From contig WGFB01000013.1 of assembly GCA_015492435.1 (NCBI GenBank), positions 1-55,061 of the forward strand: a stretch of DNA of 55,061 nt, in the 5' to 3' direction. Source of the DNA: Gammaproteobacteria bacterium (GTDB lineage: Bacteria > Pseudomonadota > Gammaproteobacteria > SZUA-140). The stretch's first letter is position 1, and the number at the start of each line of letters is the position of its first letter. Below are positions 14,154 through 46,771 of the stretch, piece by piece. The translations under genes and the position numbers were made by a program. The notes under the pieces are model-generated. The model was not told the origin of the DNA, made no database searches, and was given only the letters and a program-made list of their open reading frames with translations.

Positions 14154-14759
14154 TTACAGCTTGTCGGCATTGCTGGCCAGGTATTCGGCCACGCCCTCGG
14201 GCGAGGCATCCATTCCCTTCTCACCCTCCTTCCAGCCCGCGGGGCAGACTTCTCCGTGCTTTTCATGGAACTGCAGGGCATCCACCATGCGCAGCATTTC
14301 GTCGATGTTCCTGCCCAGGGGCAGGTCGTTCACCACCTGGTGGCGCACCACGCCCGCCTTGTCGATGAGAAATGAGCCTCGGAAGGCCACCGCGCCATCG
14401 GGCGTCTCCACATCGTAGGCCTTGCAGATGCCATGGGTCATATCGGCCACCAGGGTGTAGCCGACGGGCCCGATGCCGCCCTTGTCAACCGGTGTGTTGC
14501 GCCAGGCATTGTGGGTGAAGTGGGAATCGATGGATACGCCGATGACCTCGACATTGCGCTTCTTGAATTCATCCAGGCGATGGTCGAAGGCGATCAGTTC
14601 CGAGGGGCACACAAAGGTAAAATCCAGCGGGTAGAAAAAGATGACCGCGTACTTGTCCTTGATGGCCTCCGACAGCGTGTACTCATCGACGATGGAACCG
14701 TCACCCAATACGGCGGGGGCGGTGAAATCCGGGGCCTGACGGCCAACTAATACTCCCAT
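14154..14759 (-). CDS. ahpC: Typical 2-Cys peroxiredoxin (AhpC/TSA)
   Basis: FYPLDFTFVCPSE peroxidatic motif and GEVCPAGW resolving motif; AGGAGG RBS. Confidence 0.93.
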   Translation of the reverse strand: MGVLVGRQAPDFTAPAVLGDGSIVDEYTLSEAIKDKYAVIFFYPLDFTFVCPSELIAFDHRLDEFKKRNVEVIGVSIDSHFTHNAWRNTPVDKGGIGPVGYTLVADMTHGICKAYDVETPDGAVAFRGSFLIDKAGVVRHQVVNDLPLGRNIDEMLRMVDALQFHEKHGEVCPAGWKEGEKGMDASPEGVAEYLASNADKL

Positions 14760-14953
14760 GTGCTACCTCCTTAAAGATATATGCAGCGTGATAACAAAAG
14801 CTAAATATAGGCCCGGCCCGCTCTAATCTCAAGTGAATTCGCCACTGGTAATCCCTTAAAAAACGTAACGTTTCATTCAATTGGCGCGCCTCTCGCGCTG
14901 GACTGGCGCCACCGTCGCGCGGCGGCCGGCAAAGCAACACCCATGAAAAAGGC

Positions 14954-15047
14954 AAAAAAAAGCGCGCATGGCTCTTTGAAAGGGGAGGGGGAGGAAGCTC
15001 ATGCGCGCAACGGAGTTTAATACAAGAGGAGGTCTATATATTAAACA
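14954..15047 (-). ncRNA. Candidate trans-acting small RNA with two anti-SD loops
   Basis: Minus strand hairpin 1: GTTTAATA..GACCTCCTCTTG..TATTAAAC. Hairpin 2/terminator: GCGCGCATG..CCTCCCCCTCCCC..CATGCGCGC then T8. AT-rich promoter region directly upstream, divergent from a LysR gene. Confidence 0.6.
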
Positions 15048-15054
15048 CGCGCCT

Positions 15055-15125
15055 ACTATGCTACAGTTTTATCATATATGATAGTAAATTATTTTAATGT
15101 ATTTAATTGATATACATCAATACAA
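15055..15125. promoter_or_regulatory. AT-rich divergent promoter region with probable LysR binding sites
   Basis: Palindrome TATCATATATGATA (15070-15083) and TTGATATACATCAA (15107-15120) in a very AT-rich stretch between the LysR gene and the sRNA candidate. Confidence 0.5.
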
Positions 15126-15136
15126 AATCCACGCCC

Positions 15137-16072
15137 ATGATCAAGATCAGAAACGCCACCTTCCGGCAACTGCAAGCCTTTGAATCCATAGCGAGAAACG
15201 GCTCCATCACCGCGGCAGCGGCGGAGTTGCACCTCACCCAGCCCACCCTCTCCATACAACTGAAGAAATTGACGGCCGTGGTGGGCATGCCCCTTTTCGA
15301 CCAGATCGGCAAGCGCATCCATCTCACCGAGGTAGGCCGCGAGTTGCTCGAGACCTGTCATTCCGTGTTCGAAACCCTGTCCGCCTTCGAAATGACCGTG
15401 TCCAACATGAAGGGCGTCAAGGAAGGGAATCTGCGCCTGTCGGGGGTGACCACAGCCGAGTATTTCGCCCCCCGCATCCTGGGCGCCTTCTGCAAGCGTT
15501 ACCCGGGGATCAATGTCACCCTGGAGGTCACCAACCGCCGGCGCGTCCTGGAACGGCTGGAGCAGAACCTCGACGATCTCTATATCGTGGGCCAGGCGCC
15601 GACGGAGCCCCATATCCACCGCATGCCCTTTCTGGCCAATCCCCTGGTGGTGCTGGCGCCCCCCGGCCATCGCCTCGCCGGCCGGAAAAACATTCCCATC
15701 CAGGAACTGGCGCGGGAGAATTTCATCATGCGGGAACCCGGCTGCGGCACCTATGGCTCCATCGACCGCCTCGTCCGCGAGCACGATTTCCAGTTCAAAA
15801 GCCAGATCGGCCTGGGCAGCAACGAGGCCATCAAGCAGGGTGTCATCGGCGGGCTGGGCATATCCATGCTGTCCGTCTACGCCCTCACCCACGAATTGCA
15901 AAGCGGAGAGCTGGTGCTGCTTGACGTGCAGGGCTTTCCCATCGAGGACCAGTGGTCATTGTGTTATCCACGTGGCAAGCAGCTCTCGGTGGTGGCCCGC
16001 CTGTTCACCGACTACATGCTCAGCGAGGGTCGCGAGCTGACCCTGAAATCCTTGGCCAATATCGACTTCTGA
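15137..16072 (+). CDS. LysR-family regulator, CbbR-like
   Basis: ATFRQLQAF..AAAELHLTQPTLSIQLKKL..VGMPLFDQIGKRIHLTEVG; FLANPLVV, IMREPG, LGSNEAIKQGV, LDVQGFPI, all characteristic of the CbbR/CmpR clade. Confidence 0.85.
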   Translation: MIKIRNATFRQLQAFESIARNGSITAAAAELHLTQPTLSIQLKKLTAVVGMPLFDQIGKRIHLTEVGRELLETCHSVFETLSAFEMTVSNMKGVKEGNLRLSGVTTAEYFAPRILGAFCKRYPGINVTLEVTNRRRVLERLEQNLDDLYIVGQAPTEPHIHRMPFLANPLVVLAPPGHRLAGRKNIPIQELARENFIMREPGCGTYGSIDRLVREHDFQFKSQIGLGSNEAIKQGVIGGLGISMLSVYALTHELQSGELVLLDVQGFPIEDQWSLCYPRGKQLSVVARLFTDYMLSEGRELTLKSLANIDF

Positions 16073-45705: not shown

Positions 45706-46707
45706 ATGGATACCCGGCTGCTGGAACATGCCCGTATCGAGGCGCCCCTGTTGTGCGGGGCCATGTATCCCTGCAGCAATCCCGAGCTGGTGGCGGCCGT
45801 CTCGGAGGCGGGCGCCATGGGCATCGTGCAGCCCATCTCCCTGACTTACGTGCACGGTTACGACTTCCGCGCGGGCCTGCGCTACATCCGCTCCCTGACG
45901 GACAAGCCCATCGGCATGAACGCCCTCATCGAAAGGTCGTCACGGCGCTATCACCAGCGCATGGAACAGTGGGTCGATATCGCCCTGGAAGAGGGGGTGC
46001 GCTTCTTCGTCACCTCCCTGGGCAATCCGCGCTGGGTCGTGGACCGCGTGCATGCCACCGGCGGCCGCGTCTACCACGATGTCACGGAATACAAGTGGGC
46101 CGAGAAGGGACGGGATGCGGGCGTGGACGGGCTGATTGCCGTCAACAATCAGGCAGGCGGACACCTGGGAAACCTCGATGCCGCGGCCTTGCACGAGGCG
46201 CTGTCCGGCATGGGCCTGCCCCTGGTCTGCGCCGGGGGTATCGCCACACCCCGCCAGTTCGCCGCCGCCCTGGCCATGGGATACTGTGGCGTGCAGATGG
46301 GCACACGCTTCATCGCCACCCGGGAATGCCGGGCCAGCGACGCCTACAAACAGGCCATCATCCAGGCGCAAGAGGATGACATCGTCACCACGGAACGTAT
46401 TACCGGCGTGCCCGTCTCCGTCATCCGCACGCCCTATATCGAGCGCCTGGGCACCCGCGCCGGCCCGCTGGGCCGCTGGATGCTGCGCGGCAGGCACAGC
46501 AAGCATCTCATGCGGACGCTTTATGCGCTGAATTCCCTATGGCGGTTGAAGCGCTCACTCATGCAGGAGGACAAGGCCGGCGACTACTGGCAGGCCGGCA
46601 AGAGCGCCGGGGCCATTCATGAAATAAGATCCGCGTCCGTCATCGTGCGCGAGTTCGCCCTGGCGCTATCGAGGCTGGACGCGGGAGGCGACATTGGCGC
46701 GCCCTAG
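45706..46707 (+). CDS. Nitronate monooxygenase / FabK-like flavin oxidoreductase
   Basis: PLLCGAM, ELVAAVSEAGAMG, KPIGMN, AGGH, CAGGI, GVQMGTRFIATRE, WQAGKS. Confidence 0.9.
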   Translation: MDTRLLEHARIEAPLLCGAMYPCSNPELVAAVSEAGAMGIVQPISLTYVHGYDFRAGLRYIRSLTDKPIGMNALIERSSRRYHQRMEQWVDIALEEGVRFFVTSLGNPRWVVDRVHATGGRVYHDVTEYKWAEKGRDAGVDGLIAVNNQAGGHLGNLDAAALHEALSGMGLPLVCAGGIATPRQFAAALAMGYCGVQMGTRFIATRECRASDAYKQAIIQAQEDDIVTTERITGVPVSVIRTPYIERLGTRAGPLGRWMLRGRHSKHLMRTLYALNSLWRLKRSLMQEDKAGDYWQAGKSAGAIHEIRSASVIVREFALALSRLDAGGDIGAP

Positions 46708-46771
46708 AGGATTCGAACCTCTGACCTTTGGAATCGGAATCCAACGCTCTATCCAGCTGAGCTAAGGGCGC
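46695..46771 (-). tRNA. tRNA-Arg (CCG)
   Basis: GCGCCCTTAGCTCAGCTGGATAGAGCG-TTGGA-TTCCGAT-TCCAA-AGGTC-AGAGGTTCGAATCCTCT-AGGGCGCGCCA; 77-nt cloverleaf with encoded CCA. Confidence 0.96.

Follow-up and report, generated by a model that had tools for sequence, protein, structure and literature searches.

A predicted small RNA gene divergent from a CbbR-like LysR regulator in Tenderia-like Gammaproteobacteria

The locus and the fold of the RNA unit

We analyzed a 55,061-nt stretch of DNA (contig WGFB01000013.1 of assembly GCA_015492435.1, positions 1 to 55,061; hereafter the window) from a gammaproteobacterium of the GTDB lineage SZUA-140, and in it a short intergenic unit that we predict to be a small RNA (sRNA) gene, divergent from the gene of a LysR-family regulator. 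The predicted sRNA gene lies at 14954-15052 (minus strand) and is about 97-99 nt long, with its 5′ end placed from a putative -10 box and its 3′ end at a U8 tract. The LysR-family regulator (311 aa; 15137-16072, plus strand) is a CbbR-clade paralogue according to NCBIfam models and a phylogenetic tree, and on the other side of the unit there is a gene for a 2-Cys peroxiredoxin (AhpC-like; 14154-14759, minus strand; NF011576, 332 bits), which has a promoter-like site of its own. The host genome (G000) comprises 2.1 Mb in 128 contigs and is 90% complete, and the DNA sequencing runs that contain the locus are labelled as hydrothermal vent metagenomes. The Tenderia group matters for carbon fixation at vents and in the subseafloor and for biocathodes; to our knowledge, next to no regulatory RNAs have been described from uncultured marine chemolithoautotrophs of this sort.

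Read 5′ to 3′ on the minus strand from 15052 to 14954, the unit is GCGCGUG-GUUUAAUA-UAUAGACCUCCUCUUG-UAUUAAAC-UCCGUU-GCGCGCAUG-AGCUUCCUCCCCCUCCCCUUUCAAAGAGC-CAUGCGCGC-U8, and it folds into two hairpins. Hairpin 1 (15015-15046) has an A/U-rich stem of 8-10 bp, in which G15046-A15039 (GUUUAAUA) pairs with U15022-C15015 (UAUUAAAC), and a loop (UAUAGACCUCCUCUUG) that carries CCUCC (15032-15028) at its tip. Hairpin 2 (14962-15008) has the form of an intrinsic terminator, in which G15008-G15000 (GCGCGCAUG) pairs with C14970-C14962 (CAUGCGCGC) below a C-rich loop (CCUCCCCCUCCCC, 14994-14982); it is followed by the U8 tract (14954-14961), the predicted transcript end and possibly an Hfq-binding 3′ end. 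RNAfold, applied to 14950-15055 (minus strand), returned the same two hairpins, the first tipped by CCUCC and the second with an open C-rich loop of 20 nt, at a minimum free energy of -34.8 kcal/mol versus -16.95 ± 2.84 kcal/mol for dinucleotide shuffles (z = -6.29; none of 200 shuffles was as stable). The minus-strand unit with two hairpins, exposed C-rich loops and an 8-U end, which an earlier note on this DNA had read from the letters alone, is thus confirmed. The ACCUCCU of the hairpin 1 loop equals what we take to be the core of the anti-Shine-Dalgarno (anti-SD) sequence. A simple terminator scan lacks hairpin 2, because its rule admits only loops of 3-8 nt.

Conservation and covariation of the unit

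We searched for related units in 36 genomes of the first family (the window's own, which makes up the whole order) and in 17 genomes of a second family, with three covariance models: R1, built from eight first-copy units of genus g4; R2, from 19 units; and R3, from second-family units. In the two other genomes of the window's genus (g1) the unit is almost identical (93% mean column identity, including the promoter), and blastn of the intergenic region returned matches in the same genus only, plus a 39-nt chance-level match in G031. The units upstream of LysR orthologues in two further genera, g4 (LysR 74-76% identical) and g9 (69%), share the design of the window unit and differ from it in sequence; g4 genomes have two tandem units (one in G050), and g9 has one. 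R1 matched, at full length and on the same strand, the second copies of g4 (40-51 bits), the g1 units (30-36 bits) and the g9 unit (30.7 bits), versus at most 20 bits for its best reverse-strand or unrelated matches. R2 matched the window at 14952-15052 (minus strand; 60.4 bits, E 6.8e-10) and identified units in 12 of the 36 first-family genomes: all three of g1, eight of the ten of g4 and the only one of g9, with none in the other eight genera (the two g4 genomes without units are 66% and 74% complete).

Both helices are maintained through sequence turnover. MAFFT alignments of two g4 sub-families gave the same two hairpins, with compensatory changes in 5 of 28 and 7 of 21 pairs, respectively. 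In a model-guided alignment of 19 units (A6), 93.1% of the cells pair, and both partners have changed in 20 of 28 pairs, including 13 of the 14 in helix 1. On each of five measures, all 500 column shuffles fell short of the alignment, and 3′ partners slid out of position paired in only 19-48%. A single MAFFT alignment of all 19 units, in which hairpin 1 was out of register, supported only seven pairs and was replaced by the sub-family and model-guided alignments. The G-U pairs agree with the minus strand as the transcribed one.

A search with the LysR protein through 185,579 species genomes revealed further loci, those of the second family, in which orthologues of 69-76% identity have one to four tandem units upstream. 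These units have a short hairpin 1 without a C-rich loop, a single-stranded CUCUCCUU linker, and a long hairpin 2 with a large C-rich loop; in a MAFFT alignment of 17 of them, 10 of the 13 lower-stem pairs of hairpin 2 show compensatory changes. R3 identified 28 units in 15 of the 17 second-family genomes. Altogether, 27 of the 53 genomes, from two GTDB families of Tenderia-like Gammaproteobacteria, carry 47 units, with one to four tandem copies per genome; since each genome has one locus, a dispersed repeat is ruled out. The carriers are uncultured marine autotrophs of the sulfur/iron type. The highest copy number is seen at L068:1515-2402 (minus strand), where four tandem units follow one LysR gene, each with dyad, box and -10 hexamer. 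At L072:2320-2412 (minus strand), the LysR-proximal unit looks decayed, having lost the 5′ arm of its terminator hairpin, and the second unit is intact.

In the 36 units aligned, the predicted structures leave a CCUCC unpaired in 35 and at least four consecutive C unpaired in every one; the C runs in the loop of hairpin 2 range from C4 to C10, and the T-run after hairpin 2 is found in related units too. Two anti-SD loops, as the earlier note described them, are seen in the window unit but not throughout the family: hairpin 1 is without CCUCC in the second family and in g9, and the one loop common to all units is the C-rich loop of hairpin 2.

We also considered whether the unit encodes a small protein. 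There is a mechanical open reading frame (ORF) of 41 aa at 14877-15002 (minus strand); its ATG is part of the CATG of hairpin 2, and many units of the family have an ATG in this stem. But no Shine-Dalgarno (SD) sequence precedes the ATG, which is buried in a 9-bp GC stem, and 4 of the 36 units have no ATG at all. None of frame, stop and ATG is kept across the 36 related units, where indels of 1-2 nt within the C runs make frames, stops and peptides differ. A protein product is therefore hardly credible, in line with the earlier note, which saw no plausible ORF inside the unit.

The Rfam models gave no match to the unit at the gathering score in the window, and none at E ≤ 10 for eight loci of both types beyond chance-level hits far below the cut-offs (SR6_antitoxin, snoRNA, miRNA and group I intron fragments). 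The sole match at gathering score in the window is a tRNA gene at 46698-46771 (minus strand; 69.8 bits). In the literature searched we found no sRNA under CbbR control by title or abstract, nothing relevant on small RNAs of Tenderia, and, for LysR-type or anti-SD sRNAs in autotrophs, nothing relevant beyond the rhizobial AbcR/NfeR1 work; a cyanobacterial RNA-structure survey describes, in the available part of its text, cis structures around ccmR, which are unrelated (PMC12873609). These results support the unit as a non-coding RNA gene that is conserved and structured and whose stems covary, and the sRNA family is new, being outside Rfam and the literature searched.

The divergent regulator and the promoter region

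The window LysR has its best NCBIfam match to CbbR (NF045990), at 246.4 bits, which is below the equivalog cut-off of 450; it scored 67.3 bits against the OxyR model (NF008361, cut-off 329). The linkage between this regulator and the RNA is tight: 45 of the 47 units lie divergent from LysR genes of a single orthologue group (69-100% identity), including all 19 units of the first family and 26 of the 28 of the second. One of the two exceptions lies 204 nt from a contig end (and the LysR gene of that genome starts another contig), and the other is a true orphan. The orphan, L117 (G054:C31:7660-7773, minus strand), has its own TTTCTATTTTTATTTAT box and lies between two unrelated genes on the same strand, with no LysR gene nearby. 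Co-occurrence of RNA and regulator is perfect, in that the genomes without units have no LysR of more than 57% identity.

A quick maximum-likelihood tree, calculated from 66 CbbR-like proteins, places the sRNA-linked LysRs in one group inside the CbbR radiation, with 98% support in the Shimodaira-Hasegawa-like approximate likelihood ratio test (SH-aLRT), on a branch that also takes in two long-branch proteins without units. The same radiation holds the CbbR clades adjoining green-type cbbL (99%) and red-type cbbL; the sRNA-linked group lies between these two in the tree, whose deep forks do not single out its sister group. Two long-branch LysRs within or beside the sRNA-linked clade, L026 (G011) and L098 (G010:C55), have no unit upstream. 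No cbbL was found beside any of the sRNA-linked LysR genes. The sole gene for a RuBisCO large subunit in the host genome encodes a green-type form I protein of 473 aa (C87:10287-12795; L093) and has its own divergent CbbR, which shares 44% identity with the window LysR; the window LysR is thus not needed to explain cbb regulation. The nearest CbbRs, those of red-type cbbL in sister genera, have a nearly identical recognition helix and 72% identity to the window LysR over residues 1-65, versus 55% in the effector domain. In the first family, these red-cbbL-linked CbbRs and the sRNA-linked LysRs occur in different genera.

The 84 bases between the unit and the LysR start codon (15053-15136) have a G+C content of 25%, versus 62.6% for the window, and contain a dyad (ATTGATGTATATCAAT, 15121-15106) and a palindrome (ATCATATATGAT); the AT-rich upstream region with palindromes that had been noted earlier is therefore real. 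In the classical layout of LysR-activated promoters, a recognition site lies near -65 and an activation site over the -35 region. Counted from the predicted start, the region can be read in this way: the dyad, ATTGAT-N4-ATCAAT (15106-15121, minus strand), is centred at about -65 and is a candidate LysR recognition site, presumably shared with the promoter of the divergent LysR gene; a box resembling an activation site (ACTATCATATATG, family consensus ATTATCATTTATA; 15073-15085, minus strand) covers about -37 to -25; and the predicted -10 hexamer, CATAGT (15055-15060, minus strand), was identified from the aligned promoters. The box for LysR-type transcriptional regulators (LTTRs) is described as being of the TTA-N7/8-TAA type in the part of the source available (PMC7486931).

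The other units have the same layout. Aligned on the box, 34 unit promoters show TTT(c/t)TATTATCATTTATA and, after a gap of 11-12 nt, one of the hexamers CATAAT, CATACT and CATAGT, with hairpin 1 starting a few bases further on; by regular expression, the box was found in 33 and a -10-like hexamer in 34 of the 36 units, in register, and a strict dyad, in most cases ATAG-N8-CTAT, in 21, at a fixed distance of some 20 nt on the upstream side of the box, with most of the others keeping a half-site. When a position weight matrix of the 34 promoters was run over the whole host assembly, the window site scored 47.3 bits and the next best site 26.7 bits. The distal units of tandem arrays carry their own boxes, at distances from the LysR gene that reach about 900 nt (L068). 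The distal copies, the orphan unit and the uniqueness of the matrix match tie the boxes to the RNA units, and not only to autoregulation of the LysR gene; the aligned sequences support a LysR-type layout for the putative promoter of nearly every copy. We discarded a different promoter-like sequence, TTGATG-18-TAAAAT (15120-15091), as the main promoter, since G001 and G002 do not conserve it. In G050 (L015/L062), about 330 nt from the LysR start, there is a second box (ATTATTGCTTATA) with GCACAAT, with no unit recognized behind it.

The red-type cbbL promoters in sister genera are of the same design (ATAGAC-N4-GTCTAT, then ATTGTTATTTATA, then CATCGT), and this raises the alternative that what is conserved is DNA: a LysR operator and what is left of an ancestral cbbL promoter, along with a terminator-like palindrome, from which no functional transcript would be made. 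The separation by genus of red-cbbL-linked CbbRs and sRNA-linked LysRs would suit this alternative, and so would the records of the 11 sequencing runs listed with the locus, none of which is recorded as RNA. Against it, the compensatory changes maintain both helices while the sequence turns over, the G-U pairs and the much weaker reverse-strand scores point to an RNA of a single polarity, the loops stay C-rich while the stems change, and the cassettes have been duplicated whole. We consider a purely DNA-level feature very improbable.

A second alternative, that the unit is a cis-acting leader, attenuator or insulating terminator of a neighboring gene, turns on the position of ahpC, which in the three g1 genomes follows the unit in the same orientation. 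Its ribosome-binding site (RBS; AAGGAGGT, 14772-14765) is complementary to the ACCUCCU of loop 1 over 7 nt, as had been noticed before. However, ahpC adjoins the unit only in those three genomes and is therefore outside the conserved module; elsewhere the downstream genes differ or converge (the flanks include a Calx-beta/PKD protein, DUF218, SspA/SspB, a Macro-domain protein and an aminotransferase), and, since the flanking genes differ among genera, only the LysR gene and the RNA are conserved. The gene has its own promoter-like site, TTGAGA-17-TATATT (14832-14804), which is conserved and at least 120 nt past the U8 tract, and the spacer between the terminator and ahpC is unconserved or rearranged, with an extra stretch of about 170 nt in G002. 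The units also occur as two to four tandem cassettes of promoter plus terminator, and once as an orphan. A cis-acting role thus appears quite improbable. Directly upstream of the ahpC -35 hexamer (TTGAGA) there is a block, ATGAAACGttACGTTTTTTAAGGGATTACCA..GAATT.AC (14833-14885, minus strand), a possible operator of the ahpC-like gene, which is conserved in G001 and has AAACG-N3-CGTTT as a dyad within it. In a Tenderia-type metagenome-assembled genome (MAG), an AhpC/TSA-family gene (L074:4129-4590, minus strand) lies two genes downstream of the LysR orthologue, which may be coincidence or a redox link.

Proposed mechanism and comparison with known systems

We lean towards reading the unit as the gene of a trans-acting anti-SD sRNA of about 97 nt that is activated by the divergent CbbR-clade LysR, and judge this reasonably probable. 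Transcription would start from an activator-dependent promoter, with CATAGT as its -10 hexamer and no good -35 hexamer; the divergently encoded LysR would occupy this promoter through the dyad near -65 and the ATTATCATTTATA-type box over the -35 region, and transcription would end at the GC-rich hairpin and U8. The CCUCC of the loop and the C-rich stretches would then pair with purine-rich, G-rich SD regions of target mRNAs and block the initiation of translation, and Hfq would probably bind the U-rich 3′ end. In this way a signal sensed by the effector domain of the LysR would be relayed to a post-transcriptional regulon; judging by the ancestry of the protein, the signal may be a Calvin-cycle or redox metabolite. 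The core proposal of the earlier note, that the sRNA and not a cbb operon is tied to the CbbR-like protein, agrees with every computational test run here and is supported by the covariation within the family, the linkage, the LysR-type boxes and the separate CbbR at the RuBisCO gene, all of which were read from genome sequences.

Candidate targets were obtained with RNAduplex from 9,981 SD-bearing candidate starts in the host genome, a crude scan with many false starts. The best leads are an ORF on contig C49, a delta-carbonic anhydrase, a methyl-accepting chemotaxis protein and a PilZ protein (10-12-nt matches at the latter two), and FliF and FliI (G-rich RBSs). The C49 ORF (C49:1-338; L104) is truncated, has a signal-peptide-like start and no Pfam family, and has an RBS (AAGGGGAGGGGGAG) that is perfectly complementary to 14 nt of loop 2, the only 14-nt complement of loop 2 in the genome besides the sRNA gene itself. 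The RBS (ACAAGAGGAGG) of the delta-carbonic anhydrase (C51:13520-14389; L106, L110; PF10563, 284 bits) is complementary to 11 nt of loop 1. The sequence CAAGAGGAGG occurs seven times in the genome, versus about four times expected from a uniform-composition estimate, and is thus not clearly enriched. Hfq is encoded in 30 of the 36 first-family genomes.

Several observations weigh against the proposed mechanism. None of the three leads checked in relatives (C49 ORF, carbonic anhydrase and FliF) was confirmed as a conserved target: the C49 ORF was not found in five relatives; the carbonic anhydrase RBS, compared in six relatives, is G-rich in g4 and shows no clean covariation; and the FliF match is not conserved, the RBS not being G-rich in relatives. 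Target prediction is itself limited, because CCUCC is a generic anti-SD sequence. Neither Hfq nor ProQ was found in the host genome, at its completeness of 90%. On the side of the RNA and its promoter, the carriers are related MAGs, so that the counts of units and genomes are not independent; the A6 alignment was fitted to the model and favors pairing, for which the MAFFT-only counts serve as an independent check; the strict dyad is missing in 15 of the 36 units; and the listed runs include none recorded as RNA. In G020 (L017/L065, C117), the LysR frame carries one TGA and the match is split after residue ~233, next to two intact units; this LysR gene could be a pseudogene or the interruption an assembly error.

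The target results also bear on a third alternative, in which the RNA is real and controlled by the LysR but does not mask SD sequences, and instead titrates a protein or another RNA (for instance a factor that binds G-rich sequence, or a sponge partner) or pairs with G-rich sites outside RBSs. What all 36 units share is a C-rich loop that is long and irregular, and not a fixed seed; hairpin 1 is without CCUCC in the second family and g9; and these points, together with the lack of a conserved SD target among the leads checked, would be expected if the RNA acted in such a way. On the other hand, CCUCC is predicted to be unpaired in 35 of 36 units, and loop 1 of the window unit equals the presumed anti-SD core, ACCUCCU. 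Comparable RNAs have also been read in this sense: in the portions of the sources at hand, cuckoo RNAs and NfeR1 are interpreted as anti-SD-acting, and AbcR1 pairs with mRNAs through two defined motifs (PMC4615179, PMC8844928, PMC7486931). We regard an action of the RNA other than SD masking as unlikely.

A wider evolutionary reading can be put forward only tentatively, and we rather doubt it as a whole: a regulator of the CbbR lineage may have been re-targeted from a RuBisCO operon to sRNAs, so that one to four sibling anti-SD sRNAs would have come under an ancestral red-type cbbL promoter or its copy. In Tenderia-like electro- and chemolithoautotrophs, a metabolite signal by which the Calvin cycle is turned on elsewhere would in this way become global translational control, possibly of carbon-concentrating, redox or motility functions, with the sRNA as the sole recognizable direct target of the regulator in the genome. 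The distribution of red-cbbL-linked CbbRs and sRNA-linked LysRs over different genera would fit such re-targeting, and would equally fit differential loss of paralogues. Whichever holds, the CbbR branch of LysR regulators appears not to be restricted to cbb operons, and such proteins would therefore be mislabelled as CbbR in annotation. This bears on models that couple carbon status to gene expression in autotrophs, and the analysis yields a promoter model and two working covariance-model alignments for a new sRNA family and its likely transcription factor.

The closest parallel in organization is found in Rhizobiales, where the LTTR VtlR/LsrB binds and activates the promoter of the AbcR1 sRNA and is needed for its expression, where AbcR1 and AbcR2 are tandem siblings beside the regulator gene, and where AbcR1 uses defined motifs to pair with its target mRNAs, the translation of which it inhibits (PMC7486931, PMC8844928, both as far as the sections at hand go). 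As in that system, a LysR gene here adjoins tandem sibling sRNAs; unlike it, the carriers belong to a different bacterial class, the orientation is divergent, and the regulator is of the CbbR radiation and not VtlR. The RNAs show no sequence or covariance-model relation to AbcR (no Rfam match at E ≤ 10), and, unlike AbcR2, which depends on RpoH1, most copies here, including tandem ones, carry LysR-type boxes.

In structure, the units resemble the cuckoo/CcsR RNAs (RSs0680, ar14) of Alphaproteobacteria, which consist of two to four adjacent hairpins, each with CCUCCUCCC in its loop, read as anti-SD in the part of the source we draw on (PMC4615179). Both have two or more adjacent hairpins, variable stems that covary, and tandem copies, and the C-rich anti-SD-like loop motifs, which the same account gives as the sole conserved sequence of cuckoo RNAs, have their counterpart in the C-rich loops here. 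However, CCUCCUCCC is not found in every hairpin (the window loops have GACCUCCUCUUG, with CCUCCUC, and CCUCCCCCUCCCC), many second-family units have no C-rich loop in hairpin 1, and the units are gammaproteobacterial and linked to a LysR gene, in place of the alphaproteobacterial contexts. No Rfam covariance model matches them at the gathering score or at E ≤ 10. Since no model matches, the cuckoo motif is not in each hairpin and the LysR belongs to another clade, membership in AbcR or in cuckoo/CcsR is not supported.

Pairing of C-rich or CCUCC loops with RBSs is also a feature of two other kinds of short RNA, the Betaproteobacteria toxic small RNA (which we take to be RF02278) and RsaE/RoxS of Firmicutes; the units here differ from these in taxa and contexts, and none of the eight loci has an Rfam match at E ≤ 10. 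With respect to the regulator, the layout recalls OxyR-OxyS and GcvA-GcvB, in which a LysR regulator activates a divergently transcribed sRNA, but the window LysR is not OxyR-like and the RNAs are unrelated (no Rfam match). It recalls equally the CbbR-cbbL pairs, with which it shares a protein inside the CbbR radiation, the divergent layout, and the dyad, box and -10 design of red-type cbbL promoters; unlike in those pairs, the divergent partner is a non-coding RNA, the CbbR score of 246 bits is below the cut-off of 450, and the RuBisCO of the genome has another CbbR. The earlier note had proposed an undescribed module of regulator and sRNA: LysR-sRNA modules as such are already known, but the RNA family is new, and what stands out is a regulator of the carbon-fixation type that apparently acts through RNA in uncultured autotrophs.

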